From assembly GCA_050015495.1 (NCBI GenBank), contig JBEKBH010000006.1:67661-131660 (forward strand): a stretch of 64,000 nucleotides of DNA, in the 5' to 3' direction. The DNA comes from Verrucomicrobiia bacterium. Lineage in GTDB: Bacteria > Verrucomicrobiota > Verrucomicrobiia > Palsa-1439. Below, in pieces: positions 16,231 through 45,332 of this stretch (position 1 is its first letter; every line of letters starts with the position of its first letter). Under the pieces are notes generated by a model that saw nothing but the letters and a program-made list of their open reading frames with translations, was not told where the DNA came from and ran no database searches. Position numbers and translations under genes: made by a program.

Positions 16231-16285
16231 TGATGGGCCGGAAACCGCGTTTTGGCTGCTGCCAATGACAACATCCTGCGCAAAC

Positions 16286-17797: not shown

Positions 17798-17910
17798 CAC
17801 AGGGAAACTGGGGTCAGCGAAGTTATGAGCAGCTCATTAGAAAAATTGCGTCCCGGCGATGTGGTCGAAGTGCGACCGTGGCCGGAGATTCGTGCGACGC
17901 TGGACGAGAA
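17478..17910. repeat. Copy 2 of the ~425-bp segmental duplication (see 14735..15160)
   Basis: See copy 1. Confidence 0.7.
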
Positions 17911-19183
17911 CGGCCTGTCCGAGGGCCTCACGTTCATGCCGGAAATGTTGAAGCATTGCGGTCAACGATTCGTGGTCAGTAAACGAATCACCGGCGCGTA
18001 CGAGAGCGCATTCGGCGGCTCACAAGCCATTCGGGATGTGGTTCTCCTGCGCAACGCGCGATGCGACGGATCCGGCCACAACGCATGTGCGAAAGCATGC
18101 ATCCTGTGCTGGAAACAATCCTGGTTGAAACGGGTGGACAGAAGCGCCGTGGAACAGGCGATTGCCCCGCTGCTCGATCAATCGCCGACAGCGTTTCCTT
18201 ATCAGCTTGCGGACGGACGTTATCGCTGCCAATACGAATTCCCGGCAGCGCTGGGGAGCAGTGTTGTTCAACCCAAAGCGCGCGCGGAAGGGACGGGCCG
18301 GCTCTATCGAATGTCGGTGGATGAGTATGCGGGTTTGCAGCAGGCGGTCGGCGAAACACTCGTCTGCGTGGATGGGCACTGGTGGCGGCGGGTGCGGGCG
18401 TGTTTCTATCGGCCCTTGCTGCCATTTCAAGAATTCCCAGCCAGCTCACGAGCGATTCCGTGGGCGGCCTGGTGGGGAGTCGCGCAGCATGCCGTGCCGT
18501 GCGGCCAACAAGCCAACTCGACGATGAGTTTTCTGATGTTCATCGATGGCGCGGATTATTCCATCGACGCGCTTCGAAAGAAGCCGCGCCAACAGGTGCG
18601 CTGGGCCGAAAGAAAGTTTGTCGTCCACGATCTCGCCGACCGTGACGAATTCAAACGGCAAGCCTTTCCAGTGTACACGGAATTCTATGCCCGGACTCAA
18701 TACTATTACCTGGCGGGACGGTCGAAACGGGAGAATTTCGACCGCTGGGCCGACGCAATTTACGACTACAAGTCTTCGCTCATTCTTGGAGCGTATCGAG
18801 GGCCGCAACTTTGCGCGGTCAGCATTGCGCAGGCGGTTGAGAACACCTTGATTTACTCGACCATCTTTGCCACCGCCGAGGGGTTGCGGGATCACGTATC
18901 GAGTCTTTTATTGCACACCGTAAGAGGCAGGGCGAGGGATGATGGAGGTATCACCCAGGTGTACGCGGGAATGCCCAAGACATCCGAGGCGCACGGGATC
19001 GATGAATTTTCGATGCGGCGCGGGTGCCAGTTGGTGACCAAGCCCGCGTTCATGTGGTTAAATCCCGCCAGCAAGCTGCTGTTGCGCAGCCTGTTTTGGG
19101 GCCAATACGCGCGTTTGCGTGGCGACCAGAACGGGTCGGAGCCGGACTCGGTGAGCTCCGGCGAATCGTCATTAGCGGAATAG
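17825..19183 (+). CDS. Two-domain hypothetical protein. Cys-rich N-terminal domain of unknown function plus a C-terminal Acetyltransf_6/FemAB-like domain.
   Basis: N-terminal KLRPGDVVEVRPWPEI...CDGSGHNACAKACILCW has no family I recognise. C-terminal half has a GNAT/FemAB-like profile (..YYLAGRSKREN..LILGAY...DDGGI..). Confidence 0.5.
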   Translation: MSSSLEKLRPGDVVEVRPWPEIRATLDENGLSEGLTFMPEMLKHCGQRFVVSKRITGAYESAFGGSQAIRDVVLLRNARCDGSGHNACAKACILCWKQSWLKRVDRSAVEQAIAPLLDQSPTAFPYQLADGRYRCQYEFPAALGSSVVQPKARAEGTGRLYRMSVDEYAGLQQAVGETLVCVDGHWWRRVRACFYRPLLPFQEFPASSRAIPWAAWWGVAQHAVPCGQQANSTMSFLMFIDGADYSIDALRKKPRQQVRWAERKFVVHDLADRDEFKRQAFPVYTEFYARTQYYYLAGRSKRENFDRWADAIYDYKSSLILGAYRGPQLCAVSIAQAVENTLIYSTIFATAEGLRDHVSSLLLHTVRGRARDDGGITQVYAGMPKTSEAHGIDEFSMRRGCQLVTKPAFMWLNPASKLLLRSLFWGQYARLRGDQNGSEPDSVSSGESSLAE

Positions 19184-20337: not shown

Positions 20338-21615
20338 ATGGTTGGCAAAAGATGGATTCTAAGCGGGTGGTTCGGGGGAGCGTTGTTTTGCCAGTTGACC
20401 CTCGTTGGCGGCACACAAGGGCAAGAGGTACTGACCCCGCGCCCGGTGATCTCAACGACACCACCGGCGGTCGAGGACGTCCAGACCAACAGCGCGGGGT
20501 TCATCGACTTCGGAAATGCGGTTCCCGCCGCCGCTCTTCAACAACAACCGTTTCAAGTGGGTCCGTTGGATCTGCACCCGCATTTTTTTTATCAGTTTCT
20601 GTACGCGACCGGGATCCAGTCCGCGCCGGGTTCGCCTCACGATTCGGTCATTCAGGACGTTTCCCCGGGCTTGCTGGTGGATCTCGGAGAACACTGGACC
20701 TTGGATTACACGCCGACGTGGACATTCTATTCCAACAGCCAGTCTCATAACACCAACCTGTTTCAGAACACCCTCGACCACGCGGTCACATTGAACGGCG
20801 GGCTTGCGTACGGCGACTGGCTGCTCGGATTCAACCAAACGTACACTCGATCGGACACGCCCTTGATTGCGACCGGCGCGCAGACCCTGCAAGAGACGTT
20901 CGGCACCGCCTTGACGGGGTCGTATCGGTTCAACACCGTCATATCCATGGATTTGAGCGCCAACCAAAACTTCACGTACACCGACAAGCTGACCAACTCG
21001 CGCGAGTGGTCGTCGCTCGATTGGTTGAATTACCAGTTCTGGCCCCGGCTGGATGGGAGCCTGGGCTTGGGTGGCGGCTATGACGCCGTGAGCGCGGGCG
21101 TCGACTCGGTCTTCGAACAGTACCAGGCACGGGTGAACTGGCGGGCGACGGACGTTACCAGTTTCCTGGTCCATGGCGGTCTGGAAGACCGGCAATTCGT
21201 CGATACCAGCGTGGGCGATCTGATCAATCCCATCTTCGATGCGCAGGTCAAATACGCGCCGTTCGCGGTTACGGCGATCGTGTTGGATGCCGATCGCGTC
21301 GTGTCTACGTCGCCATTTGAGAATCAAATCGTCGAAAGCACTGATGTCACGGCGACTCTGAGTCAGCGGCTCTTAAAGAAGCTCTTTTTGAGCGCCGGCG
21401 GCGGGTACCATTGGGACACGTATGTGTCCACGTCAAGCACCCTGAACACGAGTCGCCGTGACCAGAATTATTCGATCAATGCCAGTCTAACCTGCGTATT
21501 TCTCAAACACGGCACGGCGGCGGCAACGTACCAGCACAGCGAGAACTGGTCGACGCAGTCCGTCTTCGGATACAGCAGCAATCAATACGGGTTCCAGCTT
21601 GGATTCCAATATTAA
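20338..21615 (+). CDS. Predicted outer-membrane beta-barrel protein (EPS-locus associated)
   Basis: Signal peptide MVGKRWILSGWFGGALFCQLTLVGG. Alternating amphipathic strands. C-terminal aromatic residue (..QLGFQY). ORF could start at GTG 20296. Confidence 0.5.
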   Translation: MVGKRWILSGWFGGALFCQLTLVGGTQGQEVLTPRPVISTTPPAVEDVQTNSAGFIDFGNAVPAAALQQQPFQVGPLDLHPHFFYQFLYATGIQSAPGSPHDSVIQDVSPGLLVDLGEHWTLDYTPTWTFYSNSQSHNTNLFQNTLDHAVTLNGGLAYGDWLLGFNQTYTRSDTPLIATGAQTLQETFGTALTGSYRFNTVISMDLSANQNFTYTDKLTNSREWSSLDWLNYQFWPRLDGSLGLGGGYDAVSAGVDSVFEQYQARVNWRATDVTSFLVHGGLEDRQFVDTSVGDLINPIFDAQVKYAPFAVTAIVLDADRVVSTSPFENQIVESTDVTATLSQRLLKKLFLSAGGGYHWDTYVSTSSTLNTSRRDQNYSINASLTCVFLKHGTAAATYQHSENWSTQSVFGYSSNQYGFQLGFQY

Positions 21616-22558
21616 AACGGTTCCCTCATTGGAGGCGACGTCGGCGGCGGAGCAACACCCGGTGTCACTCGACCGCCCGGGATGGCCGAAGAATCTTGTC
21701 TGGGCGACGATCGTTCTCGTGGCCTGTTTCAGCGTGCCGTTGTTCCGTCTGGTGTGGTTCGCGGCAACCAGTGAGTTGTATTCCCAGTGCTTGTTGGTGC
21801 CGTTCGTGAGCGCGTACCTGGCGTGGTTGAACCGGGGCAACGTGTGGGGCTCTTCCGGGCCGAACCGGCGATTCGCCGTGTTCGCATGGTCCGCCGGGTC
21901 AGTTTTGCTGGCCGGATACTGGCTGGCCATTTGGTCCCGTTGGCCCATCACCAATCAGGATGGCCTGGCATGGACAATCTCGGCCTTCGTCTGCCTCTTT
22001 TTCGGCATGTGCGGCTGGTTCGCCGGCCGGGAAAGACTCCGCACCATGCGGTTTCCCTTGTGTTTCCTGGTGTTCATGGTGCCGTTTCCGATGGTGGTAC
22101 ACAATTGGCTGGAAGGCTTTCTCCAGCGAGGATCGGCGCTGACGGCCTATGGGTTCTTTCAGTTATTCGGGACGCCGGTCTTTTACAGCAACTTGAATTT
22201 CCAATTGCCGGGCTTTGCGTTGCAGGTGGCGCCGGAATGCAGCGGCATCCATTCCAGCCTGGTGTTGTTCCTGACCAGTCTGGTCGCGGGCCACCTTTTC
22301 TTGCGATCGCCATGGAAGGGGGGAATCCTGGCGCTGGCCGTGCTTCCACTCGGACTGTTGCGAAACGGGTTTCGCATTTTCGTGATCGGCCAACTATGCA
22401 TGCATATCGGGCCCCAGATGATCCATTCCGTGTTTCACCGGGACGGCGGCCCCGTCTTTTTTGCGCTGTCCCTGGTGCCGTTCTTTCTTCTCTTGCTTCT
22501 CCTGCGGCGATCCGAACAGGCGCCGGCGGGATCGACAGACCAACAACGGAGTTCTTGA
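21599..22558 (+). CDS. Exosortase (EpsH/Xrt family transmembrane transpeptidase)
   Basis: Multi-pass membrane protein with the conserved exosortase motifs QVAPECSGIHSSLVL and LRNGFRIFVIGQ. Start uncertain (TTG 21599 or GTG 21662). Confidence 0.85.
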   Translation: MDSNIKTVPSLEATSAAEQHPVSLDRPGWPKNLVWATIVLVACFSVPLFRLVWFAATSELYSQCLLVPFVSAYLAWLNRGNVWGSSGPNRRFAVFAWSAGSVLLAGYWLAIWSRWPITNQDGLAWTISAFVCLFFGMCGWFAGRERLRTMRFPLCFLVFMVPFPMVVHNWLEGFLQRGSALTAYGFFQLFGTPVFYSNLNFQLPGFALQVAPECSGIHSSLVLFLTSLVAGHLFLRSPWKGGILALAVLPLGLLRNGFRIFVIGQLCMHIGPQMIHSVFHRDGGPVFFALSLVPFFLLLLLLRRSEQAPAGSTDQQRSS

Positions 22559-22571
22559 CCCACACCCGTCC

Positions 22572-24173
22572 ATGACCACGACACACCCGAACACGCTTTG
22601 CTCCGGTTTCTTGCAGTCGGTCGAGAGGGTTCCGGACCGCCCGGCCCTGGAGGTCTCCGGCCAGTGCCTCACCTACGCGCAACTGTTCGACAACGCCGCG
22701 TCGCTGTCGGCCACGCTGGCCGCGCTCGACACGGCCAACGACCCGCCGTTGACCGCCGTCTTCGCGTATCGCTCGGTGACGGCATTCGCCGGTGTGTTGG
22801 GCGCGTTACTCCGGGGCCATGGATACGTGCCTCTCAATCGCACCTTTCCCCCGGACCGCACCCGAACCATGCTGCAACGCTCCGGTTGCCAGGCCGTGAT
22901 CGTCGATGCCCAATCGGAGAGCCAGTTGACCCAGGTGTTGGAGGGAGTTGACCAGACCCTGGTCATCGTGCTGCCGGAACGGGACGACGTGCGCGCGCTG
23001 GCCGCGCGCTGGCCAAACCATCGATTCATTGGCGCCCGTCAGCTGGCGTCAAGTGATCAGTGGCGCCCGGTGGAGACGTCCCCGAATTCCATTGCGTATC
23101 TTCTGTTCACTTCGGGCAGCACGGGTGTGCCCAAAGGAGTCATGGTCGCGCACCGCAACGCGAACCATTATGTGGAGTTCATCGCCAATCGTTTTTCGAT
23201 CACCCACGAGGACCGGTTTTCGCAGACGTTCGACATGACGTTCGACCTGTCGGTGGCGGACATGTTCGTGGCCTGGGAACGGGGAGCCTGTGTGTGCTGC
23301 CCGTCGGAGAAGACGCTCATCAACCCCGGGCGGTTCATCAACGACTCGCGCCTGACCATTTGGTTTTCCGTTCCATCCACGGCCGTGTTCATGAAACGGC
23401 TGGGGACCCTGAAACCGGGCCTGTATCCGCGGTTGCGGGCCAGCCTGTTTTGCGGCGAGGCGCTCCCGGCCGAGGTGGCGAGGGCCTGGTCGGAAGCCAC
23501 TCCCCATTCGATCGTGGAAAATCTGTATGGCCCGACGGAACTGGCCATCGCCTGTATGTTTTACCGGTGGGACCCGGCGCGGTCGGCCGCCGAGGCGGAA
23601 AACGGGATTGTCCCTATCGGCGAACCGTTCCCCGGCATGATCGCGCTGGTGGCCGATGAGACCTTTCGCGAAGTCGCGCCGGGCGAGGACGGCGAATTGC
23701 TCATGACGGGTCCACAGATGTCGCTCGGATACTGGCGCGATCCGGAAAAGACCGCGGCCAGCTTTGTCACGCCGCCGGGCCGGAGCGAGGTGTATTACCG
23801 CACCGGTGATCGCGTTCGCCGACCCGTGGACGGCCAACCGATGGTGTACTTGGGGCGAGTGGACAACCAGATCAAGGTCTTGGGCCACCGCGTCGAGCTG
23901 GGCGAGGTGGAGGCCGCGCTGCGCGAGCTGTCGGGCATCGATGGCGTGGCGGCATTTGGATGGCCGCTGGTGTCGGGTGGGGCCAGCGGAATTGAAGCGT
24001 TTATGCAGACCGAGAGCGTGGAAGCGGACGAACTCCTGAAAAAGGTCAGCTTGCGGCTTCCGCTATACATGGTGCCGCGGAAGATCCATTGCCTGCCGGT
24101 GTTCCCGTTGAACCCGAACGGAAAGATCGACCGGAAGGCTCTCCGGAAAGTGTTGGAGACTACCAATGACTGA
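22572..24173 (+). CDS. AMP-dependent synthetase/ligase (acyl-CoA/acyl-ACP ligase). Resembles the exosortase-system-associated acyl ligase.
   Basis: AMP-binding motif LLFTSGSTGVPKGVMVAHRN. YRTGD and GR..DNQIKVLGHRVELGEVE motifs. Confidence 0.85.
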   Translation: MTTTHPNTLCSGFLQSVERVPDRPALEVSGQCLTYAQLFDNAASLSATLAALDTANDPPLTAVFAYRSVTAFAGVLGALLRGHGYVPLNRTFPPDRTRTMLQRSGCQAVIVDAQSESQLTQVLEGVDQTLVIVLPERDDVRALAARWPNHRFIGARQLASSDQWRPVETSPNSIAYLLFTSGSTGVPKGVMVAHRNANHYVEFIANRFSITHEDRFSQTFDMTFDLSVADMFVAWERGACVCCPSEKTLINPGRFINDSRLTIWFSVPSTAVFMKRLGTLKPGLYPRLRASLFCGEALPAEVARAWSEATPHSIVENLYGPTELAIACMFYRWDPARSAAEAENGIVPIGEPFPGMIALVADETFREVAPGEDGELLMTGPQMSLGYWRDPEKTAASFVTPPGRSEVYYRTGDRVRRPVDGQPMVYLGRVDNQIKVLGHRVELGEVEAALRELSGIDGVAAFGWPLVSGGASGIEAFMQTESVEADELLKKVSLRLPLYMVPRKIHCLPVFPLNPNGKIDRKALRKVLETTND

Positions 24174-24483
24174 GATCCGTTCCGAACACGTGCGCGCGTT
24201 TCTGGTGGCGCAATATGCCGACCAGATCCAGGGAAAAGGGTTTGACCCCGACGTCTTGCCGGACGATTTCGATTTCTTGCTGAAGGGGGTCATCGATTCG
24301 CTGGGCGTGCTCCAGATGGTCGGCGAATTGGAAAAGAAGTTTCAAATTGAGCTGGATATGAGCAGCCTGGACCCGGAGCAATTGACCGTGCTCGGCCCGC
24401 TCAGCCGGTATGTTGCCGAGGCGGCCGGCCGCGACGGCAAAGGCGGTGCGCGCCCGGGCAACCAACACACGGGAGCGTCCTGA
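24166..24483 (+). CDS. Acyl carrier protein (phosphopantetheine attachment site)
   Basis: GVIDSLGVLQMVGELEKKF, the DSL motif of ACPs. ATGA overlap with the ligase stop. Confidence 0.7.
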   Translation: MTEIRSEHVRAFLVAQYADQIQGKGFDPDVLPDDFDFLLKGVIDSLGVLQMVGELEKKFQIELDMSSLDPEQLTVLGPLSRYVAEAAGRDGKGGARPGNQHTGAS

Positions 24484-24517
24484 AGGCGGCTTTCCCGTCC
24501 GTCCAAGGTATCGCACA

Positions 24518-25480
24518 ATGATTGTCCGTTATCCAACTCCCGGTGTGTTCCTCTGGGGACTGACCCAGAAGCTCGGGTCCGTCCGTCGGGATTTGTCCGA
24601 GTTGAAGGCGTCCGATCTGATCGGCAACCCGGTCGAAGAGCTGGCGAAAAACGGCTACCAGTTCAACCGCGGGGCCGGCAAGACCGAGGACCTGCTGTCC
24701 CTGGCGGCGGGGCCATTCGGGTTTCTGTTGAAGTGCTGTACGAACCCGAGCGCGGTTGTCGTTCACCACTCGTATGGGGAGAACGCGTCGCTCCCCAGGG
24801 AATCGGAAGACCGGGATTTGATGTCTCGGGCGACGTATTTCCCCGCGCTCCTGCTCCGGCAATTTGATGTGGATGACGTCCCGTACTTCGGTTCGTTTGC
24901 CAGCGGCTGCACCGGTTTTTTGTCGCTGGTGACGATGGGGGCCGGATTGCTGGGATCGGCCGAAGACCCGCCGGTCATCTGTCTCACCGCCGACGTGCGG
25001 CCCAAGGGAATGTGGTTTGACGCGGGGCGGGAGAAGATCCTGACATCGGATGCGGCGTCGGGTTTCCTCATGGGCCGTGAGCGAAGAGGTTTCCAGGTTC
25101 TCGGGGTCAATCACTATTCGACGGGTCGACGGCTGGTCCCGCTGGTGGAAATCGTCAAGCGCACCGTGCACATGACCCGGGAGTTGGCGGACCGAGTGGG
25201 GGTAGGCGGGCGGCTCGGCGAAGCCGTGGTTCATTACCCGAATATTTTCCCGCAGGCCTGGGACATGGTCAGCGGCTACCTCAAGGTCAGCCCCGAGCGA
25301 CATATTCTCGACCAGTTGGCCGAGCGGGCCCACTGCCTGAGTTCGGATTCGGTCATCTCGTTGGGAAAACTTCACTCCGGCAACGAGGGTCGGCTTCACG
25401 TGGTGGTGAATTTCGGCAGCGGGGTGCATCTGGGAATCTGCATTTTGAGCGAGGTCAAGGCACATGCACGCGCCGATTGA
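24518..25480 (+). CDS. FabH-like 3-oxoacyl-ACP synthase III family condensing enzyme
   Basis: Active-site Cys context FASGCTGF. Downstream HYPN and VNFGSG (His/Asn triad positions). About 320 aa. Confidence 0.65.
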   Translation: MIVRYPTPGVFLWGLTQKLGSVRRDLSELKASDLIGNPVEELAKNGYQFNRGAGKTEDLLSLAAGPFGFLLKCCTNPSAVVVHHSYGENASLPRESEDRDLMSRATYFPALLLRQFDVDDVPYFGSFASGCTGFLSLVTMGAGLLGSAEDPPVICLTADVRPKGMWFDAGREKILTSDAASGFLMGRERRGFQVLGVNHYSTGRRLVPLVEIVKRTVHMTRELADRVGVGGRLGEAVVHYPNIFPQAWDMVSGYLKVSPERHILDQLAERAHCLSSDSVISLGKLHSGNEGRLHVVVNFGSGVHLGICILSEVKAHARAD

Positions 25481-27311
25481 CGCCATGCTCCTGCGGGTGC
25501 CGGAGTCGGCCCGTCCCGCGGTGTCGGAAGCGCTGGGGGAGACGCCGACGTGGGTGAAACTGCGCCGGGCGAATGCCGCGCTGGAGAGGACCGAAGCCGG
25601 GCTTCGGGGACCCGAGGTGGCGGTCAATCTTCTGGCCAGCTTCAACCTGGAACCGATCGAGCCCGCGTTGCGTTTGGGATTGCAGTGTATTCCCTGCCGG
25701 CCACAATTGCGGATTGCGCCGCTGAACACCATCGAGCAAACCTTGCTCGACAAGGGGTCGCCAGTCTATCAGGAGAGCAGTTTGGCCACGGTGATCCTGT
25801 GGCGGATCGAGGAACTGCTGCCAGAGGTATTGCTTCCGTTCTCGTCCGGTGGCGCCGACGTCTTGAAGGGTCAGGTCGAACTCCTGTGGTCGAGAATCGA
25901 ACGAGTGTGCCGCGCCCATCGGGAGACGGGGAAATCACTCCTGTTTGTGTCGACGTTTCCGTCGCCACGCGTGGTCTCCGGGCTGGTGTTGAACTCCCCG
26001 TCGGTTCCGGGACCCACGAGCGCGGTCGCGGAACTCAATCGTAAACTGTATGAACTGGCCGCATCGGCACCGGGGATTCACGTATTGGATCTGAACTGGT
26101 GGGCCGGGCAGGAAGGGGCCAGCGCCTTCGACCCGTTGATGGAGCACATGGCCCGGCAACCGCTGAGCCTGCGGGGAGCGTTGTCGTTGGGGTTGTTCGT
26201 GGCGCGTCATCTGCGGCCGTTGCTGGTGCCCCGGCGAAAGGTGCTGGCGTTGGACCTGGACAATACCTTGTGGGGCGGGATCCTCGGCGAGGACGGCATT
26301 CATCATCTCAAACTAGGGCACGATTTTCCCGGGAACATTTTCCTGCGCATCCAGCGCGAAGCCCGCGAACTCAAGAGCCAGGGTGTGCTCCTGGCCTTGC
26401 TATCCAAAAATGACGAGACTGAGGTGCGGCAGGCATTCCGGGAATTGCCGGACATGGAGCTAAAGTGGGAGGACTTCGTTAGCCGACGGGTCAATTTCAA
26501 CCACAAACACGAGAGCCTCCGCGAGATGGCGGAGGAATTGGGGTTGGGGATCGACAGTTTCGCGGTGTTGGACGATTCCGACTACGAACGGGAACAGATC
26601 CGCATGTTTCATCCGGAAGTGCTCGTCATCAACCAACGGAGCGACCCGCTCCACATGCTTCAGGCGCTGCAATCCACCGACGCCTTCGACGCCTACGCGG
26701 TGACCGCGGAAGACCGGGGACGACATCGGGAATATGAGTTGCGGGAAATGCGCCGCACGCAGGGACGCGAAACGAACCTGGAAGAGTTTCTCCGGTCCCT
26801 GCATCTCCAGGCGACAATCGAATCCATCCACGACGGGAATGTGGACCGCGTGGTCCAGATGCTGTCGAAGACGAACCAGTTCAATCTGACCACGCGAAGA
26901 CATCGACTGGAAGAGTTGAAAGCGCTGGTGGCGATACCCGGCAGCGTCAGCCTGACACTGCGGTTGTCCGACAAATTCGGCGACCAGGGGATCGTCGGCG
27001 TGTTACTGGCGGTTCCCGCCGATGATGGACGGCGGCTGCGAATCGACAGCTATCTGGTCAGTTGCCGGGCGTTGGGCCGCGGGGTGGAGGAGTTTCTCTG
27101 GGCCGAACTGGCGAGACAGGCGCTGGACCACAAGATTCACGGGATCCTGGGCGAGTACATTCCCACGCCAAAAAACGGTCTGGCGAAGGGATTCTATGAC
27201 AAGCTGGGGTTCACGCGGGTCGAGGAAAACGCGTCGATGACCCGATACCTCATAGAACCGCTGACACCGGTCGAGCCACCGGTCTGGTTGGCCAGCAACG
27301 GAGGACAATGA
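25464..27311 (+). CDS. FkbH-like protein (HAD-superfamily IIIC phosphatase domain plus C-terminal acyltransferase-like domain). Glyceryl-ACP-forming enzyme family.
   Basis: HAD motif I LALDLDNTLWGG. Motif ...LLSKNDE.... FkbH-like C-terminal region NQFNLTTRR...DKFGDQGIVGVL. Confidence 0.7.
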   Translation: MHAPIDAMLLRVPESARPAVSEALGETPTWVKLRRANAALERTEAGLRGPEVAVNLLASFNLEPIEPALRLGLQCIPCRPQLRIAPLNTIEQTLLDKGSPVYQESSLATVILWRIEELLPEVLLPFSSGGADVLKGQVELLWSRIERVCRAHRETGKSLLFVSTFPSPRVVSGLVLNSPSVPGPTSAVAELNRKLYELAASAPGIHVLDLNWWAGQEGASAFDPLMEHMARQPLSLRGALSLGLFVARHLRPLLVPRRKVLALDLDNTLWGGILGEDGIHHLKLGHDFPGNIFLRIQREARELKSQGVLLALLSKNDETEVRQAFRELPDMELKWEDFVSRRVNFNHKHESLREMAEELGLGIDSFAVLDDSDYEREQIRMFHPEVLVINQRSDPLHMLQALQSTDAFDAYAVTAEDRGRHREYELREMRRTQGRETNLEEFLRSLHLQATIESIHDGNVDRVVQMLSKTNQFNLTTRRHRLEELKALVAIPGSVSLTLRLSDKFGDQGIVGVLLAVPADDGRRLRIDSYLVSCRALGRGVEEFLWAELARQALDHKIHGILGEYIPTPKNGLAKGFYDKLGFTRVEENASMTRYLIEPLTPVEPPVWLASNGGQ

Positions 27312-27556
27312 ACGCGGAGACGGATCGATTGCGGGACCTGTTGATTGAATTTTTTGAGCTTCCCCCGGATACGATGGCGTCGGACATCGTGCAGGAGCGG
27401 ATTGCGAAATGGGACTCGCTGGCCATGGTACAATTGATCGCGGAGCTACAAACGGTATTCGGCGTGGAATTTGACGTGGACGAAATCGACCGGCTTACGA
27501 GCTGCTCGCAGATCGGTGAGGCGCTCGGCCGCAAAGGGGTGAAGGTCTCACGATGA
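27308..27556 (+). CDS. Acyl carrier protein (second ACP)
   Basis: KWDSLAMVQLIAELQTVFGVEF, the DSL phosphopantetheinylation motif. 82 aa. ATGA overlap with the FkbH-like stop. Confidence 0.7.
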   Translation: MNAETDRLRDLLIEFFELPPDTMASDIVQERIAKWDSLAMVQLIAELQTVFGVEFDVDEIDRLTSCSQIGEALGRKGVKVSR

Positions 27557-28026
27557 GAATTGTTCTGCTATCGGGATTGAAGAATCGAATCCTGCAAATC
27601 CTCGCGAGAGTATCGCCGGGGGCCAGCAGTATTCGCGTCTGGCTGCATCGGTGGCGCGGCGTGAAAATGGGCAAACGCGTGTGGATCGGCTACGATGCGA
27701 TCATCGAAACTGAACATCCGTATCTGGTGGAGATCCGTGACGACGCCGTGGTCGGGATTCGGGCAACCATTATCGCCCATTTTCGAGAATCAAAAGGGGT
27801 CGTTATTGAGGAGGGCGCGGTGCTCGGGCCGGGAGTGATTGTGTTGCAGGGAGTCACCGTCGGCAAGGGCGCGGTGGTGGCCGCCGGCAGCGTGGTGACC
27901 CGGTCGGTGCCGCCGATGACGATGGTGCAGGGCAATCCCGCCAAGCCCATCGCCAAGCTCGGGCAGATGTTGACCCGGACCACAACCCTCAAGGCATTCT
28001 CCACGAGTCTTCGGCCACTGTCGTAA
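27553..28026 (+). CDS. Hexapeptide-repeat (LbH) acetyltransferase (WcaF/MAT-like)
   Basis: GAVLGPGVIVLQGVTVGKGAVVAAGSVV hexapeptide repeats. RBS gaagg. Confidence 0.75.
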   Translation: MRIVLLSGLKNRILQILARVSPGASSIRVWLHRWRGVKMGKRVWIGYDAIIETEHPYLVEIRDDAVVGIRATIIAHFRESKGVVIEEGAVLGPGVIVLQGVTVGKGAVVAAGSVVTRSVPPMTMVQGNPAKPIAKLGQMLTRTTTLKAFSTSLRPLS

Positions 28027-28043
28027 CCCGCCTGGCTATTCCC

Positions 28044-29843
28044 ATGGAAGGATTTACCAAAGAGCCCCGTCTCGTTGTGCTTTCGTCCGAACCCTCGGCC
28101 GTTTCGGACCGGGCACTGGCCAAGTTTGCCGGGTTTTTGGGTGTGACAGCGCCGCTGGTACCGGTCCACGCTGAACTTGCCGGGCCTCCACCGGAAGCTC
28201 TGATGGCGCCCGCGACCGAACGCTGCCTGGCGCTGAGTCTGGCCACTTTCCGAATTCTCAAATCACAGTCGTGGTTTCCGAGCCTGTTGCCGCAAGCGAA
28301 GGCCATCCTCATCTATGGATTTGGCGTGACGGAAACGGAATGCGGCGACTTGAAAGAACTGACGCGGGGGGCACTGGCTTCTGTGGTCGCAGTCGACGCG
28401 AAAACATTCGAGTATCACATTCATGGGGACGGCAAACACAAGGCGTTTCCAATTTCCGGCAGGTCGTACACGGTCGAGTTACCTGCAGTTCCTCTGGCAT
28501 TTGGTTCCCCGTCTGTTCGGGATGGCGTTGACACCCTGATCTCGGTGAACCACCAGCCCTGCTTCGTATCGGTGCCGAGCGGCCGGGGCACACTCTATCT
28601 GTTGTCCAGCCCCACGTTGGTGGACATTGACGTTCCCCTCCCATCGAATTGCCCGTCGCGGCAATGGTATGCCGAACTGCTGGGCTTATCCATTTTCCTT
28701 CGCTCGGTGTTCGGCCGGTGGTGCTGGACCGCTCCGGCCCGAACGGCGACGATCGTGATTGATGATCCCTATCTCAAAAAGCGATACGGTTTCCTGCGTT
28801 ACGAATCGCTGGCCCGTGAACTCCAGCAAACGGGTTGTTCCCTGACGGTGGGATTCATTCCGTACAATTATTGGCGCAGCGACCGGCGCGTTACGAACAT
28901 GTTGCGCGGCCAGCGGGATCGTTTTTCCATCGCGGTCCACGGTTGCGACCACACGACTGCCGAATTCGCCAGTCGGGACGAAATGTGGCTGAATCAAAAG
29001 GCCCGGTGGGCCTTGGAACGCATGGACACCCACACCAAACTGACCCAGATGCCGTATGACGAGGTCATGGTGTTTCCACAAGGGCGATTCTCCACAAAAG
29101 CCATTCAGGCCTTGAAGGAGTGCCGGTATCTGGCGGCCGTGAACACGACCGTGTGGCCCGTGGATGCCGCGGAGAACCCGCTGACGCTCCGGGACATTCT
29201 GGATGTCGCGGTCACAAAGTACGACAACTTCCCGATCTTTGGTCGGAGGTATCCGCAGGATGTTTTCGACTTCGCGGTTGACGCCTTGTTTCAGAAGCCG
29301 TTGTTGATCGGGGAACACCATGCGTTTTTCAAGTCCGGGTTCGAGCCGCTACGGCGGGTCGCGCGCGAACTGGCGACGCTCGATACGCCGCCGGTGTGGA
29401 TGCCGCTTCAGGGAGCGCTGACATCGACCTTTGTCGTCAAGCGCGCGGGGTCCGGTCATTACGATGCCAGGTTCTTCACGTCCCTGTTGAGATTGCGGAA
29501 TGCCACGGGTGAGCCATGTCTCTACTCGCTGACGAAGCCCGAGGCACCCGGGCTGGTGGAAGCGGTGACGGTGGGGGGCAAGAGCGTGCCGTTTGAATGT
29601 CGGTCGGGCTTCTTAAAGTGCGACGTTCAGCTTGGTCCGGAGGACGAGCGTGACGTGAAGGTGTTGTACCGTGCCGCGGAACACAGGAGCAATCACTACC
29701 GGCGCTCTTGGAACTTTCGCTCGCGGGTTTTTGCCAGAAGGATGTTGTCCGACATGAGGGACAATTATTTGTCAAAAAGCGACCGGCTGTTGGCCGCCGC
29801 GGAGAAGGTAAAGGATCGCTTGTTCAAAGACGGCATCGTCTAG
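28044..29843 (+). CDS. Hypothetical 599-aa protein. Possible divergent CE4-like (polysaccharide-deacetylase-like) core.
   Basis: No signal peptide. Motifs IVIDDPYL and SIAVHGCDHT are reminiscent of NodB motifs 1 and 2. Otherwise no family I can name. Confidence 0.45.
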   Translation: MEGFTKEPRLVVLSSEPSAVSDRALAKFAGFLGVTAPLVPVHAELAGPPPEALMAPATERCLALSLATFRILKSQSWFPSLLPQAKAILIYGFGVTETECGDLKELTRGALASVVAVDAKTFEYHIHGDGKHKAFPISGRSYTVELPAVPLAFGSPSVRDGVDTLISVNHQPCFVSVPSGRGTLYLLSSPTLVDIDVPLPSNCPSRQWYAELLGLSIFLRSVFGRWCWTAPARTATIVIDDPYLKKRYGFLRYESLARELQQTGCSLTVGFIPYNYWRSDRRVTNMLRGQRDRFSIAVHGCDHTTAEFASRDEMWLNQKARWALERMDTHTKLTQMPYDEVMVFPQGRFSTKAIQALKECRYLAAVNTTVWPVDAAENPLTLRDILDVAVTKYDNFPIFGRRYPQDVFDFAVDALFQKPLLIGEHHAFFKSGFEPLRRVARELATLDTPPVWMPLQGALTSTFVVKRAGSGHYDARFFTSLLRLRNATGEPCLYSLTKPEAPGLVEAVTVGGKSVPFECRSGFLKCDVQLGPEDERDVKVLYRAAEHRSNHYRRSWNFRSRVFARRMLSDMRDNYLSKSDRLLAAAEKVKDRLFKDGIV

Positions 29844-30004: not shown

Positions 30005-33000
30005 ATGCGACAGTTTCTGTTTAGAATTCTTGCGTTGGCGGCGTTGTTTCTAACCGTCATAGCCGGAAGCGGTTGCACACAAGCAGCCAGACGAGCCCGG
30101 CACTTGGCCCGTGCCAATCAGTACTTCGATTCCGGCGAGCTGGACAAGGCCGAGATCGAGTACTTGATCGTCCTCAAAACGGATCGGACGAATCCCCGGG
30201 CCATCGGTCGACTCGGCATCATTTATTACGAACAGGGGCGATATGGGCGCGCGATTCCGTTCCTGATCAAGGGGAAGGAGCTCGCGCCGGAAGACCTGGA
30301 CCTGCGACGGAGGCTGGCCGCCGTCTATTTGTCAGCGGGCAAGACAAAGGATGCAAGGGATGAGGCCATCTTCGTTCTCGATCGAAATCCGCGCGACGAT
30401 GAGGCGCCGCTGTTATTGGCCGAGGCATCGGCAGCCACAAACGCCGTGGCCGAGGCACAGGCGAGATTGAAGGCGGCGGTGCAGAAGGCGGGTGAGACCG
30501 CGGCATTGGATGTGGCCCTGGCGCATCTGGAACAGAACCGCGGAGATTTTCAGGCAGCAGCAGCCGATCTGGAACGGGCCAAGGCTCTCGACCCAAAATC
30601 GAGTTCGGTGTTTTGGGCGTACGGGAACCTGTATTTCGCGCAAAACGACCAGAAGCAAGCCGGGGAGGCATTCCAGACGGCGGCCAAACTGTCTCCTCCC
30701 CGATCTCCGAGGCGATTGCGATATGCCGAGTACAAAATCCGGGCCGGGGATCTGGCAGACGGCAAACAGCTCTTGCAGGACATCACCCGGAAGACTCCGG
30801 ACTATTTGCCCGCATGGAGGTGGCTGGCGGAGATTGCCCTGGCCGAAACGAACTATGACCAGAGCGCGGACCTTGTCGGCAAAATGCTCGCGCGGGATTC
30901 GCTCAACTACGACGCGCTGCTGTTGAATGGCCGGATCTATCTGGCGAAAGGGAACGTGGACAGGGCGATCGGAGAGTTCAAGAAGGCGGTGACGGCATAT
31001 CCACAGGCGCCCGAGACGCATTATCAACTTGCCGTCAGCTATCTGGTGAAAAATGAAGTCGGTCAGGCGGTGATCAGCTTGAATCAGGCGTTGAGCGTGG
31101 CGCCGAATTTTGCGGAGGCCACGGTATTGCTGGCGGGAATCAAAATGAGAACCGGCGAAGTGGGTGCGGCCATCGCTTCGCTGAAGCCGCTGGTGGAGAA
31201 GCGACCGCACTTTGTTCAGGCCCAGCTTCTTCTGGCCGACGGGTATCGCGCCCAGGGCGATTTCGAGTCCGCGATCGAGATCTACCGCGCCATGGAGAAG
31301 TTGGCTCCAAAGAATCCCGATGCGCCGCTCCTCATGGGGATGACATTTCTCCAGGAGGAAAAACGGGATGAAGCCCGCGCGGCATTCGGCAAGGCCGTGG
31401 AATTATCTCCCGATTACCTGGCCGGGGTGGAGCAGTTGGTGGACATGGATATCGCGGACAAACAGTATGAAACGGCCCTGCAGCGGGTCCAGCCGCTCCT
31501 CGATCGAAACCCCAAGTCGGCAGAAGCGCGGCTGGTCCAGGCGAAGATTTTCCTGGCGCAACAAGACGCGAAAGGGGCGGAAGCCGCGCTGGTGAAGGCC
31601 ATCGAGTTGAAGCCGGAATCCCGGGCCGCCCATCTCATGCTCGCGCGGTTGTACGTCGACACTCACCAGCAACAGAAGGCGTTGGATGATCTCCGGCCGT
31701 TCGTCGAGAAAAATCCAAAGGACGCCGGGGCGTGGCTGTTCATCGGCATGATCCAGGAACAGCAGAAGGATTACGATGCCGTCCGCGACACCTACGAGAA
31801 ATTGCTGGCCGCCAATCCGCAGTACACGCCGGCCATGAACAATCTGGCGTGGTTGTATGCGGAAGATCTTGGACAGACGGACAAGGCATATGAGATCGCC
31901 AGCAAGGCTAGGGAATTGCAGCCATACGACCCGTTTGCCGCCGATACGCTGGGTTGGATCCTCTATCGGATGAAGCAGTATCCGAAGGCCCTGAGTTTGT
32001 TGCAAGAAAGCGCCGGCAAGATCGGCAAGCAGGCCGACGTCCAGGTTCATTTGGGGCTGACGTATTACATGTTGGACGAGGAAGAACCGGCCCGAACGGC
32101 GCTGCAACGCGCCAAGGAATTAAAGAAGGATGTTACCGGCCACGAGGAAGCTGATCAATGCCTGGCCATTCTAGCCATCGATCCCGCGTCGGCAGGGCCC
32201 GAAGCACGAACCATGTTGGACAAACGACTGGCGGCGACAGCGGATGACCCGGTGGCCCGAGCGCGGCTGGCGGCCATTGACGAACGCGAAGGGAAATTTG
32301 ACAAGGCGACCGAGGGGTATCAGACGATACTGACCTCCAATCCTGACGACGTCAGGGCGTTGGTCAGTCTCGCCCGGCTCTACTCATCGCATGGGAATGA
32401 CCCGCACAAGGCCATCGAATTTGCCAAGAACGCGTACAAACTTGCGCCGAACGATCCTGCCATCCCCCTGATCCTTGGTCGGCTGGCGTTTCAAACCGGT
32501 GATTACAAATGGGCGGCGAGCCTGCTCCAACAGGCGTCGAGCCAACAACCGCAGAATCCCGAGGTGCTCTTTGATTTTGCGCTGGCCTCCTACAGCGTTG
32601 GCCAGGTGTCTGATGCCGCAGCCAATGCGAAAAACGCCTTGCAAGCCGGGGCTGGGTTCTCGCGCGCGGATGCCGCGACGCGGTTTCTCGACATGATCGC
32701 ACTGGCGGGTGACCCGGAGCGGGCGGTGACGTCGTCGTCACGCGTTCAGGAGATATTGAAATCGCAACCAGATTATGTGCCCGCGCTCATGGCGATGGGA
32801 GCGATTGAAGACCAAAAAGCGGATCTTCGCGCGGCGGAGCAGGTCTATGAAAAAGCGCTGTCGCTGTATCCTGACTTTGGACCAGCGAAGAGGCGACTGG
32901 CCATCCTGTACGCGGCGGACCAACCCGCTGACAATCAGCGGGCGCTACAACTCGCCATGCAGGCCCGAGAGGCATATCCAGTCGATCCAGAAGTTGCGAA

Positions 33001-33235
33001 AGCTTTTGGCATCGAGGCGTATCGGCAAGGGGACTACGCGAGGGCAGCCGGACTCTTGAAGGAGAGCGCCAACAGTCTGACGGCGGATGCGACTTTGATG
33101 TACTACCTGGGGATGGCGCAATATCGGAATAACGACCCGGCAGCCTGCAAGCTCTCGCTACGACGAGCTCTCGAATTGAATCTGAACGGTGAATTGAGTT
33201 CGGCGGCGAAACAAACGCTGGTGGGATTGAAGTGA
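30005..33235 (+). CDS. prsT: PEP-CTERM system TPR-repeat lipoprotein PrsT
   Basis: Lipoprotein signal LFLTVIAGSGC. About 1070 aa of TPR repeats throughout. Immediately upstream of prsK/prsR. Confidence 0.8.
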   Translation: MRQFLFRILALAALFLTVIAGSGCTQAARRARHLARANQYFDSGELDKAEIEYLIVLKTDRTNPRAIGRLGIIYYEQGRYGRAIPFLIKGKELAPEDLDLRRRLAAVYLSAGKTKDARDEAIFVLDRNPRDDEAPLLLAEASAATNAVAEAQARLKAAVQKAGETAALDVALAHLEQNRGDFQAAAADLERAKALDPKSSSVFWAYGNLYFAQNDQKQAGEAFQTAAKLSPPRSPRRLRYAEYKIRAGDLADGKQLLQDITRKTPDYLPAWRWLAEIALAETNYDQSADLVGKMLARDSLNYDALLLNGRIYLAKGNVDRAIGEFKKAVTAYPQAPETHYQLAVSYLVKNEVGQAVISLNQALSVAPNFAEATVLLAGIKMRTGEVGAAIASLKPLVEKRPHFVQAQLLLADGYRAQGDFESAIEIYRAMEKLAPKNPDAPLLMGMTFLQEEKRDEARAAFGKAVELSPDYLAGVEQLVDMDIADKQYETALQRVQPLLDRNPKSAEARLVQAKIFLAQQDAKGAEAALVKAIELKPESRAAHLMLARLYVDTHQQQKALDDLRPFVEKNPKDAGAWLFIGMIQEQQKDYDAVRDTYEKLLAANPQYTPAMNNLAWLYAEDLGQTDKAYEIASKARELQPYDPFAADTLGWILYRMKQYPKALSLLQESAGKIGKQADVQVHLGLTYYMLDEEEPARTALQRAKELKKDVTGHEEADQCLAILAIDPASAGPEARTMLDKRLAATADDPVARARLAAIDEREGKFDKATEGYQTILTSNPDDVRALVSLARLYSSHGNDPHKAIEFAKNAYKLAPNDPAIPLILGRLAFQTGDYKWAASLLQQASSQQPQNPEVLFDFALASYSVGQVSDAAANAKNALQAGAGFSRADAATRFLDMIALAGDPERAVTSSSRVQEILKSQPDYVPALMAMGAIEDQKADLRAAEQVYEKALSLYPDFGPAKRRLAILYAADQPADNQRALQLAMQAREAYPVDPEVAKAFGIEAYRQGDYARAAGLLKESANSLTADATLMYYLGMAQYRNNDPAACKLSLRRALELNLNGELSSAAKQTLVGLK

Positions 33236-33479
33236 CGAGCAAAACAACTGGGCTTTGCGAGTGGGACAGATCGCAAGTTGCGGGTCAAACGTGACCCGGT
33301 TGTGATATCTGGAATATGGCCGCAATTCAGTTTCGGGAGACTCCGGCGGGCCAGTGCTTGCCGCACCGTCATTCCCCCTGCAAGGGAGAGTGTAGTAAGC
33401 TATCTGCGGCCCGACTGACCGTGAACCGAACAGAAAGGCGCGGCGGGACACGATTCCGACCGTGAACCAGCGATAGACC

Positions 33480-45326: not shown

Positions 45327-45332
45327 GGCAGC

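Follow-up and report, generated by a model that had tools for sequence, protein, structure and literature searches.

A candidate carrier-protein-dependent acylation cassette for exopolysaccharide, inserted beside an XrtC-type exosortase in a Verrucomicrobiia bacterium

Results

Between an XrtC-type exosortase and the PrsT/PrsK/PrsR genes, the stretch of DNA analysed here (64,000 nucleotides of an uncultured soil bacterium, referred to as the window) carries seven plus-strand reading frames, whose positions in an earlier note on this DNA were confirmed (Table 1). With moderate confidence, we interpret them as a cytoplasmic, carrier-protein-dependent module for the aminoacyl/glyceroyl acylation of exopolysaccharide, and of the readings proposed in the earlier note, it is the first, a glyceryl or acyl decoration of the polysaccharide, that the evidence favours. 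The cassette is surrounded by a Wzx-type exopolysaccharide locus and includes a KAS III-like enzyme family that was not previously filed.

Table 1. Features of the cassette and its immediate neighbours in the window
Feature	Position	Strand	Basis
XrtC-type exosortase, directly 5' of the cassette	21599-22558	+	TIGR04151, 304.2 bits (cutoff 300)
Stand-alone NRPS-type amino-acid adenylation enzyme (A-domain, CP1 loader)	22572-24173	+	TIGR01733, 322.9 bits (cutoff 317.4); Pfam AMP-binding
Carrier protein CP1 (aminoacyl carrier, KAS III-like partner)	24166-24483	+	PF00550, 23.3 bits; DSL site at Ser44
KAS III-fold enzyme, Pfam-orphan family, predicted Cys-His-Asp acyltransferase (Cys131, His272, Asp277)	24518-25480	+	
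FkbH-type glyceryl-S-ACP synthase, long form	25464-27311	+	TIGR01686, 268.8 bits (cutoff 146.65), residues 258-584; HAD-IIIC, 56.9 bits
ACP2, dedicated FkbH carrier	27308-27556	+	PF00550, 27.1 bits; DSL site at Ser37
Short left-handed beta-helix (hexapeptide) acyl/acetyltransferase	27553-28026	+	PF00132, 38.9 bits
Predicted cytoplasmic polysaccharide deacetylase, 599 aa	28044-29843	+	AF2/Foldseek; CE4 motif
PrsT	30005-33235	+	TIGR02917, 392.6 bits (above cutoff)
PrsK	33480-35594	+	TIGR02916, 399 bits (above cutoff)
PrsR	35591-36958	+	TIGR02915, 597.9 bits (above cutoff)

The gapless ATGA couplings described earlier hold for two junctions only, FkbH/ACP2 and ACP2/hexapeptide transferase; the A-domain/CP1 and KAS III-like/FkbH genes overlap by 8 and 17 nt, and gaps of 34 and 17 nt separate CP1 from the KAS III-like gene and the hexapeptide gene from that of the 599-aa protein. 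The GC content shows no anomaly. The active-site motifs FASGCTGF (KAS III-like) and LDLDNTLWGG (FkbH) were recovered in the translations, inspection of which revealed neither a signal peptide nor a membrane acyltransferase in the cassette proteins, and no PKS or KS-AT gene was found among the large reading frames of the window. The same locus contains two FemAB-like genes, and a protein encoded at 40810-41640 ends in a PEP-CTERM-like tail.

The premise of an exosortase-A locus did not survive the profile searches. The exosortase passes the XrtC model, whereas its XrtA score of 98.8 bits falls below the cutoff of 208, and an XrtA identity was rejected. In other XrtC-like loci, PrsT usually starts within about 100 bp of the exosortase end; in metagenomic loci of this type it normally follows directly, and cassette genes occur in 1 of 80, or in 1 of 14 if only loci that extend at least 5 kb on both sides are counted. 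The share of XrtC loci bearing the cassette is about 1 in 14 to 25. Since XrtC normally abuts PrsT and only one of 80 loci carries cassette genes, the 7.3-kb block is an insertion, in line with the earlier description of a pathway grafted into a PEP-CTERM locus. Because XrtC is normally followed by PrsTKR with no cassette between them, the adjacency of the cassette to PrsK and PrsR is a product of the insertion site.

Two loader-carrier pairs are encoded. The first enzyme had been taken for an exosortase-A-type acyl ligase, an identity rejected by its score of 220.7 bits against the XrtA-associated ligase model TIGR03098 (cutoff 592); the model it does pass is that of amino-acid adenylation domains. 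DltA models also remain below cutoff (NF003417, 244.5 bits versus 476; TIGR01734, 241.7 bits versus 559.85), and the closest single-domain relatives in the PDB are the stand-alone A domains 8k4r, 6akd and 4oxi. Asp235 (FDLSV) and Lys517 (NGKIDR) are invariant across 18 orthologues. The specificity code, derived by hand, reads DLATLCLIAK, for which we know of no matching code. CP1, with weak matches to DltC and OlsHI ACP, usually adjoins the KAS III-like or A-domain gene, lies directly upstream of the KAS III-like gene in most loci and is fused in-frame to it in three protein clusters (P0080, P0073, P0103). The FkbH identity proposed earlier was borne out by its score, by the DLDNT motif and by a conserved Cys in LVSCRALGRG; the protein matches PDB 3slr (BF1531) with an E-value of 2.6e-28 and is 30-35% identical to genes annotated 'HAD-IIIC family phosphatase' in Streptomyces, Sinorhizobium and others. 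Its N-terminal 257 residues, which precede the TIGR01686 region, have no family assignment. ACP2 is encoded directly downstream of FkbH in every complete FkbH-bearing locus.

The KAS III-like protein has no Pfam or NCBIfam match at threshold, and its fold is evident from structure prediction (pLDDT 91) and profile bridging, with ChlB3 and NatS as the best structural matches. Its family is tight and separate, with about 225 detectable members and no Pfam entry. Of the FabH-like condensing enzyme that had been proposed, the KAS III fold and the active-site Cys stand: Cys131 aligns with FabH Cys112. The condensing Asn does not, and lack of the Cys-His-Asn triad had been named beforehand as refuting the pathway then proposed; the position of FabH Asn274 is taken by an invariant His (His272), followed five residues on by Asp277. 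This GHxxxxD pattern also occurs in Pfam-positive KAS III relatives. The first His is ambiguous: opposite FabH His244, hhalign puts His239, with very low confidence, and MAFFT puts Pro241. The acyltransferases ChlB3 (Cys113/His296/Asp301) and CerJ carry a Cys/His/Asp triad; the acceptor is a sugar hydroxyl for CerJ and another carrier for ChlB3 (PMC9573744). By its sequence, the KAS III-like enzyme is therefore predicted to be a Cys-His-Asp acyltransferase of this kind.

The hexapeptide transferase is the most conserved cassette protein (60-65% identity across lineages, present in 27 lineages). It weakly matches sugar acetyltransferases of the WcaF, NeuD and WbbJ types and, in the PDB, DapH, QdtC and WlbB-like proteins. 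For the 599-aa protein, no family matched at threshold, with Polysacc_deac_1 and DUF2334 below it. Its AF2 model (pLDDT 89.9) retrieved PelA, NDST1, Agd3, chitin deacetylases and ArnD in Foldseek, and D240-D241, H299 and H303, a CE4 metal motif, are invariant. The model predicts a PelA/Agd3/NDST-like polysaccharide deacetylase with a CE4-like catalytic and an N-terminal GATase1-like domain. The gene is lineage-restricted and lies 3' of the hexapeptide gene, in the same order, in L006-L010, L045 and L046.

About 30 lineages, all uncultured and represented by Verrucomicrobiota and Acidobacteriota MAGs, carry the cassette, always in glycan loci with glycosyltransferases, flippases or ABC exporters, and sugar-nucleotide enzymes; neighbours and inserts include GT2 genes inside the cassette, Wzx or Wzm/Wzt exporters, an NDP-sugar dehydrogenase and aminotransferases. 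Its core consists of a carrier protein, the KAS III-like enzyme and the hexapeptide transferase. Around this core, the A-domain/CP1 and FkbH/ACP2 pairs are optional, interchangeable loaders: some loci have A-domain/CP1 only (L001, L024, L025), others FkbH/ACP2 without the A-domain (L017, L027, L037, L038, L040; in L038 also without CP1 within 10 kb), and L003 and L035 have neither. The KAS III-like and hexapeptide genes are kept in all these variants. Of about 25 informative lineages, about 17 (about two thirds) have an XrtC-like exosortase no more than 10 kb away; in at least seven of these it directly adjoins the cassette despite shuffled gene order, next to the hexapeptide gene or, in the window, next to that of the A-domain. 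Wzm/Wzt O-antigen-like loci (L001, L005, L045, L046) carry the cassette without an exosortase nearby.

Discussion

How might these proteins act together? In the decoration we favour, the A-domain, assigned at the family level, would adenylate an alpha-amino acid and load it onto CP1, while FkbH, judging by its family, would convert 1,3-bisphosphoglycerate to glyceryl-S-ACP2. The KAS III-like enzyme would take the carrier-bound acyl group onto Cys131 and, using the CerJ/ChlB3-like His272/Asp277 pair, transfer it to a sugar hydroxyl or amino group, at the level of either the nucleotide sugar or the undecaprenyl-linked repeat unit; the acceptor amine may be exposed by the 599-aa deacetylase. The hexapeptide transferase may add an acetyl cap or perform a second transfer, before the decorated unit would be flipped, polymerised and exported. 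By analogy with ChlB3, the acceptor could also be a second carrier and not a sugar. N-glyceroyl sugars such as Pse5Am7Gra exist; which genes underlie them has been described as unresolved (PMC5378307).

A carrier-to-carrier role of the KAS III-like enzyme is the centre of an alternative that we consider possible though unlikely: the two carrier-bound units would first be joined into one pendant group, as N-glyceroyl-aminoacyl-S-CP1 or O-aminoacyl-glyceryl-S-ACP2, which the hexapeptide transferase would then load onto the sugar from an acyl-carrier donor, like LpxA and LpxD. This would suit the two different carriers of the full cassette, the CP1 fusions, the invariance and high conservation of the hexapeptide transferase, and the structural likeness to ChlB3 and NatS, both KAS III-like acyltransferases, the former acting between carriers. 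However, the hexapeptide protein resembles short acetyl-CoA-dependent sugar acetyltransferases rather than LpxA/LpxD, and joining cannot be the universal role, because the one-loader, one-carrier loci L001 and L038 keep both genes.

The frequent proximity to XrtC raises a less probable option, in which the cassette puts an amine-bearing group (aminoacyl, possibly glyceroyl-linked) on the polysaccharide as the XrtC acceptor. XrtC would join the cleaved C-terminus of VPDSG/PEP-CTERM substrates to it, comparable to a sortase and a Fem-built glycine bridge. To our knowledge, the exosortase acceptor has been defined in no system. The neighbouring exosortases in about two thirds of informative lineages, the FemAB-like genes and the protein with the PEP-CTERM-like tail speak for this option; the Wzm/Wzt loci devoid of a nearby exosortase speak against it, and since most XrtC-like loci lack the cassette, it is not generally required for XrtC function.

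We give little credence to a lipid or other envelope molecule as the target, for instance an aminoacylated glycerate-containing lipid, by analogy with the AlmEFG system, which adds glycine to lipid A, or with ornithine-lipid ACP systems. The A-domain does resemble stand-alone loaders such as AlmE (4oxi), and CP1 weakly matches OlsHI ACP (E 2e-5), but LPLAT, MBOAT or other membrane acyltransferases are neither in the cassette nor conserved beside it, and GT2 genes inside the cassette and the co-inherited polysaccharide-deacetylase-like protein tell against it as well. Hardly credible, finally, is the other product suggested in the earlier note, a diffusible acyl-tetronate or butenolide signal built by the FkbH/ACP/FabH-like trio and tied to PrsK/PrsR: this reading is not supported because neither a PKS or FAS nor any other source of beta-ketoacyl groups was found in the window or the 10-kb flanks of the related loci examined and because His-x4-Asp stands in place of the condensing Asn, as it does in acyltransferases; moreover, the donor enzyme is an amino-acid adenylation domain, with Asp235 and Lys517 kept, that would place an alpha-amino acid and not a beta-ketoacyl thioester on the carrier, FkbH-less variants retain the KAS III-like enzyme, the context is always glycan assembly, and the PrsK/PrsR adjacency is an insertion-site effect.

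Finally, we would like to compare the proposed polysaccharide decoration with known systems. CerJ, ChlB3, ChlB6 and NatS share with the KAS III-like family the thiolase/KAS III fold, a Cys with His-x4-Asp, and as donor a thioester bound to CoA or a carrier protein. Identity to them is only 12-16%, and the family described here has no Pfam ACP_syn_III match at threshold. CerJ-type enzymes belong to actinomycete antibiotic clusters and use malonyl or aromatic acyl donors, whereas members of this family come from Verrucomicrobiota and Acidobacteriota, where they lie in primary polysaccharide loci, with aminoacyl and glyceroyl groups as predicted donors. The FkbH/OzmB glyceryl-S-ACP synthases have in common with the cassette enzyme TIGR01686, DxDxT, the conserved Cys and a dedicated ACP encoded beside them. 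Their methoxymalonyl-ACP route continues with dehydrogenases and an O-methyltransferase, and their tetronate route with a PKS or condensing enzyme, all of which are missing from the cassette, which sits in an EPS locus.

A likeness in gene content is seen in the flagellin-glycosylation island cj1299-cj1304 of Campylobacter jejuni (acpP2, the FkbH-domain gene cj1302, fabH2 cj1303, acpP3), where FkbH, a KAS III homologue and two ACPs likewise occur in a glycan-modification locus. An FkbH gene also lies beside pseB and NeuB-like genes in a pseudaminic-acid locus on a Maritalea plasmid. Glyceroyl sugars are known in such organisms; unlike the cassette, these loci have no A-domain and no exosortase, and no functional characterisation of their genes was found in the literature searched.

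The XrtA accessory set comprises a TIGR03098 ligase, an ACP, a decarboxylase and hydrolases. It resembles the cassette in placing an AMP-forming enzyme and a carrier protein beside an exosortase; the decarboxylase and hydrolase partners are absent here, and few XrtC-like loci carry the cassette. Dlt (DltA/DltC) and AlmEFG use a stand-alone A-domain to charge a small carrier with an amino acid for an envelope polymer, as is proposed for the cassette, and FDLSV and LFCGE of the window A-domain are motifs of DltA as well. Dlt, however, relies on DltB/DltD and Alm on an AlmG-type membrane transferase, whereas the cassette has neither, its transferase being a soluble KAS III-fold enzyme.

Organization of the cassette

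The seven open reading frames that an earlier note had placed between an exosortase gene and the prs genes are present as described. Closely packed on the + strand, they encode an adenylation enzyme (A-domain), a carrier protein (CP1), a KAS III-like protein, an FkbH protein, a second carrier protein (ACP2), a short hexapeptide acyltransferase of 157 aa that is closest to sugar acetyltransferases, and a protein of 599 aa; the motifs FASGCTGF and LDLDNTLWGG both occur in the translations. The gapless ATGA coupling ascribed to the block holds at two junctions, FkbH/ACP2, where the ACP2 start overlaps the FkbH stop codon, and ACP2/hexapeptide transferase, but of the others, two overlap by 8 and 17 nt and two are separated by 34 and 17 nt. 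The exosortase gene lies on one side of the cassette, and PrsT, PrsK and PrsR, each above its own curated cutoff, lie on the other. A publicly available protein with an identical sequence assigns the window to an uncultured Verrucomicrobiia MAG. GC content is flat and gives no signal of foreign origin in the window, so horizontal transfer from a composition anomaly was rejected. A promoter and terminator scan of 17-34 kb gave no signal exceeding shuffled expectation. Among the other genes of the window, the BshA/BshB1-like pair may, judging by its family matches, represent bacillithiol-type biosynthesis genes in a Verrucomicrobiia genome.

Coordinates of features in the window and in comparison loci (L numbers) from other genomes and metagenomes
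Stretch	Positions	Strand	Feature
Window	11294-12400	+	FemAB-like gene, EPS locus
Window	16214-17437	+	FemAB-like gene, EPS locus
Window	17825-19183	+	452-aa ORF inside EPS locus; no Pfam or NCBIfam match
Window	21599-22558		Exosortase
Window	22572-29843	+	Cassette, seven genes
Window	22572-24173	+	A-domain
Window	24166-24483	+	CP1
Window	27308-27556	+	ACP2
Window	30005-36958		PrsT, PrsK, PrsR
Window	40810-41640	+	276-aa secreted protein
Window	44169-46082	-	BshA gene, above curated cutoff; BshB1-like deacetylase gene, below its cutoff
Window	53125-58464	-	AmmeMemoRadiSam system: radical SAM enzyme and fused B/A protein
Window	54710-56965		Fused membrane/spermidine-synthase-like gene, flanked by AmmeMemoRadiSam genes
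L003	8449-10948		Hexapeptide transferase between two KAS III-like paralogues
L035	5766-8201		Hexapeptide transferase between two KAS III-like paralogues
L044	7188-9647		819-aa FkbH-like 'HAD-IIIC family phosphatase'
L054	10001-19000		Metagenomic XrtC-like locus, default gene order

A KAS III-fold family with a predicted acyltransferase-type active site

The KAS III-like protein is predicted to adopt a thiolase-type KAS III fold (pLDDT 90.9; model built from a 38-sequence alignment). Foldseek matched the model best to the acyltransferase ChlB3 and then to FabH structures, with NatS ranking beside ChlB3 at the head of the structural matches. Nothing in Pfam or NCBIfam reached threshold (ACP_syn_III 14.0 bits versus 24, ACP_syn_III_C 12.6 versus 26.6), a sequence-profile search of the PDB with the family returned marginal FabH matches only and a spurious match to I-MsoI, and tblastn against 72,556 plasmids gave no match. 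When 1.84 billion representative proteins were searched by profile, 225 matched at E<=1e-3, among them a second tier of ~310-aa proteins that are Pfam-positive KAS III members; the tie between the family and these members comes from profile search only. Judged by their sequences, the KAS III-like enzymes are a small separate family outside the Pfam and NCBIfam models.

In a MAFFT alignment of both tiers with E. coli FabH, Cys131, which is invariant in the family, aligns with Cys112 of FabH. The position of FabH Asn274 is occupied by an invariant His272, never by Asn, in the 38 family members, and Asp277, five residues further on, is likewise invariant; the pattern GHxxxxD is common to the family and the Pfam-positive second tier. 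The equivalent of FabH His244 is ambiguous, being His239 by hhalign and Pro241 by MAFFT, and the hhalign comparison of the family with E. coli FabH (probability 1.3%) was used cautiously, to place nothing beyond the Cys and first His. ChlB3 (C113/H296/D301), and likewise CerJ, carries a Cys/His-x4-Asp arrangement and performs acyl transfer instead of condensation (PMC9573744), and the spacing of His272 and Asp277 equals that of H296 and D301. With Cys131 and His272-x4-Asp277 on a KAS III fold, the protein is predicted to fit the CerJ/ChlB3 acyltransferase pattern. The name 'FabH-like' is apt for the fold and the active-site Cys131 but not for the Cys-His-Asn triad, since His272 takes the place of Asn274. 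Loss of this triad was among the findings that the earlier note had named as refuting its proposal, and the replacement of Asn by His-x4-Asp is such a loss.

Predicted loading enzymes and a putative deacetylase

The A-domain is not the XrtA-associated acyl-CoA ligase it had been taken for: it remains below the cutoff of TIGR03098 (220.7 bits versus 592.35) but exceeds that of TIGR01733, the model for NRPS-type adenylation of amino acids (322.9 versus 317.4). It is also below the DltA cutoffs (NF003417, 244.5 versus 476; TIGR01734, 241.7 versus 559.85), and the cassette proteins reach 23.5 bits on the DltC model, below its cutoff of 68. Its closest solved single-domain relatives are the stand-alone loaders 8k4r, IdnL7 (6akd) and AlmE (4oxi); LgrA, the top PDB match, is an artefact of two summed A-domains and was not used for glycine specificity. 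In an alignment made by hand to GrsA numbering, Asp235 (FDLSV) and Lys517 (NGKIDR) are invariant in 18/18 orthologues, and their retention indicates an alpha-amino acid as the probable substrate class. The ten-residue code of the window clade reads DLATLCLIAK, that of most lineages DLHTLC[IL]IAK; neither is known to match a described specificity code. CP1 and ACP2 are both carrier proteins with a DSL phosphopantetheine site.

The FkbH identity proposed earlier was borne out. The 615-aa protein scores 268.8 bits on TIGR01686 (cutoff 146.65; residues 258-584), and HAD motif I (DxDxT) appears around residues 264-268 as DLDNT. The Cys conserved near the C-terminus, which, following the OzmB literature, we take to be the carrier of the glyceryl intermediate, lies in LVSCRALGRG. 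By these features it is a genuine member of the FkbH family and a predicted glyceryl-S-ACP synthase. A methoxymalonyl-ACP pathway was rejected, as the cassette contains neither dehydrogenases nor an O-methyltransferase.

The 599-aa protein has 147 homologues, all unnamed, and its translation shows no signal peptide. Its model (pLDDT 89.9) was matched by Foldseek to PelA, NDST1, Agd3, chitin deacetylases and ArnD (E 1e-10 to 1e-4), with an N-terminal domain similar to class I glutamine amidotransferases. Across 36 sequences, D240, D241, H299 and H303 do not vary, in agreement with the CE4 metal motif (Asp-Asp...His-x3-His), and the score on Pfam Polysacc_deac_1 is below threshold (12.7 bits versus 23.1). 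The gene follows the hexapeptide transferase gene on its 3' side, an order that the window clade shares with L045 and L046, two lineages further removed. The protein is best read as a putative cytoplasmic glycan deacetylase.

Distribution and variants of the cassette

For homologues of the KAS III-like protein, we gathered 46 surrounding loci and compared them by tblastn and ORF clustering; Verrucomicrobiota, Acidobacteriota and a few other MAGs are their sources, with no cultured organism among them. With the window clade counted once, and with absences partly uninformative as many contigs are short, the KAS III-like enzyme was found in 32 lineages, the hexapeptide transferase in 27, CP1 in 23, FkbH and ACP2 in 20 each, the exosortase in 17 and the A-domain in 15. 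Gene order differs between lineages, but ACP2 directly follows FkbH in every complete FkbH-bearing locus. CP1 is usually encoded beside the KAS III-like enzyme or the A-domain, and natural in-frame fusions of CP1 to the KAS III-like enzyme form three protein clusters (P0080, P0073 and P0103; 391-403 aa). Three loci have the A-domain and CP1 without FkbH and ACP2 (L001, L024, L025), and five have FkbH and ACP2 without the A-domain (L017, L027, L037, L038, L040), L038 also lacking CP1 within 10 kb. L003 and L035 have neither loader and two KAS III-like paralogues; there, a giant protein of 1,700-1,850 aa adjoins on the opposite strand. Read most simply, the module has an invariant core for transfer, made up of carrier, KAS III-like enzyme and hexapeptide transferase, and two optional loaders. 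A GT2 glycosyltransferase is often found inside the cassette, and its neighbours include flippases or Wzm/Wzt exporters, Poly_export proteins, NDP-sugar dehydrogenases and aminotransferases.

A full cassette with 55-67% identity to that of the window also occurs in a 'Bifidobacteriaceae' MAG (L011, contig CAYVGC010000029.1). This assignment looks like a binning error, since Verrucomicrobiota and Acidobacteriota account for every other carrier. The cassette is real, conserved and not previously catalogued; in the searchable literature, whose coverage is incomplete, we found no description of it.

Association with XrtC-type exosortases

The locus had been described as an exosortase-A locus. The window exosortase instead passes the XrtC model TIGR04151 (VPDSG-CTERM exosortase; 304.2 bits versus 300) and reaches only 99 bits on the XrtA model, whose cutoff is 208. 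Across the lineages, an exosortase lies within 10 kb of the cassette in ~17 of ~25 informative ones and directly abuts it in at least seven; of the exosortases scanned from outside the window, 8/8 have XrtC as their best NCBIfam model, at 226-262 bits, below cutoff. Nor is the cassette an already annotated standard accessory set of exosortases, and NCBIfam has no models for it. Metagenomic XrtC-like loci (L049-L126, for example L054, L063 and L085) have the default order XrtC-PrsT-(genes)-PrsK-PrsR, with PrsT starting within ~100 bp of the exosortase, and cassette genes occur in one of the 80 best such loci, or one of 14 where both flanks are at least 5 kb; in this one, L109, the exosortase is preceded by CP1 and the hexapeptide transferase. 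Given that XrtC and PrsT are usually contiguous and the cassette so rarely present, it is an optional insertion, recruited preferentially, not exclusively, to XrtC loci, and in the window clade it has come between XrtC and PrsT.

A regular-expression search for PEP-CTERM tails found none. Reading of C-termini brought up a 276-aa secreted protein ending in ...CEVPEGTSTLMLLGAALTTLSLAGRKLHSK, without an NCBIfam match; this C-terminus resembles a VPDSG/PEP-CTERM sorting signal, which makes the protein a likely XrtC substrate. In the EPS locus of the window, two FemAB-like genes (weak TIGR03019 and FemX matches) suggest that tRNA-dependent addition of amino acids to the glycan may exist alongside the carrier-protein route. 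A literature search, with incomplete coverage, returned nothing on XrtC or VPDSG-CTERM biology.

Proposed function

What, then, might the cassette make? The reading we favour, with about even confidence, is that the repeat unit of an exopolysaccharide is decorated in the cytoplasm with aminoacyl and glyceroyl substituents. Going by family membership, the A-domain would load an amino acid on a carrier, and FkbH would load its ACP with D-glycerate drawn from 1,3-bisphosphoglycerate. The KAS III-like enzyme would then move the acyl group to a sugar hydroxyl or amine, a role suggested by its active-site pattern, its presence across all variants and the glycan context. The deacetylase could free an acceptor amine for re-acylation, and the hexapeptide transferase may likewise take part in the decoration. 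Glyceryl or acyl decoration of the polysaccharide was one of the outcomes foreseen in the earlier note, and the glycan context, the acyltransferase-type active site and the loader families support it.

That the two carrier-bound units are first joined, carrier to carrier, into a combined pendant group is unlikely. We give a rather small probability to the idea that the cassette makes the acceptor for exosortase anchoring, placing an amine handle, perhaps via a glyceroyl linker, on the repeat unit, onto which XrtC would transpeptidate VPDSG/PEP-CTERM proteins; if true, this would raise the interest of the cassette substantially. A lipid as the target is very improbable. The tetronate or butenolide signal proposed earlier is hardly credible: the FabH-like enzyme has no condensing active site and a beta-ketoacyl donor is missing, as no KS, AT or PKS was found among the annotated ORFs of the window, where the absence of a PKS had been noted before, or of related loci.

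To our knowledge, little has been established on the route by which bacterial surface glycans acquire glyceroyl and aminoacyl groups. The cassette offers a complete candidate enzyme set: two loaders (A-domain and FkbH), each with its carrier protein, a transferase of the CerJ/ChlB3 type and a deacetylase. It also defines a KAS III-fold family not captured by Pfam or NCBIfam. Exosortase targets are still undefined, and the repeated occurrence of the cassette right next to exosortases of the XrtC type gives a genomic lead to them of a rare kind; the cassette also bears on the matrix chemistry of abundant uncultured Verrucomicrobiota and Acidobacteriota of peat and soil.

Comparison with known systems

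N-glyceroyl sugars are chemically established, while their genetics was described as unresolved, the genetic basis of N-glyceroyl substitution being called a major challenge in a 2017 Tannerella study (PMC5378307). The searchable literature gave nothing relevant on FkbH together with O-antigen or exopolysaccharide. FkbH genes are also found in pseudaminic-acid loci, and FkbH was matched in S. meliloti, in a record without annotation. On a plasmid of Maritalea myrionectae (L044, NZ_CP021332.1), an FkbH-like gene sits among pseB, an SDR gene and genes for a DUF4910 protein and a NeuB-like synthase, a context that fits a putative FkbH-dependent acylation of nonulosonic acid in a cultured bacterium. 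The nearest precedent in a glycan context is the flagellin glycosylation island of C. jejuni with its uncharacterised FkbH/FabH2/ACP genes. In contrast to Dlt D-alanylation, the cassette has no DltA or DltC at cutoff and no DltB (MBOAT) or DltD; a Dlt-like extracytoplasmic route was rejected on the absence of DltB/DltD-like genes. An acceptor handle for XrtC would, if true, make the cassette a Gram-negative counterpart of the Fem-bridge/sortase system. In its proposed enzyme logic, the cassette combines four known elements: FkbH/ACP glyceryl loading, stand-alone aminoacyl loading of the Dlt/Alm type, KAS III-like transfer of the CerJ/ChlB type and an NDST/PelA-like deacetylase.
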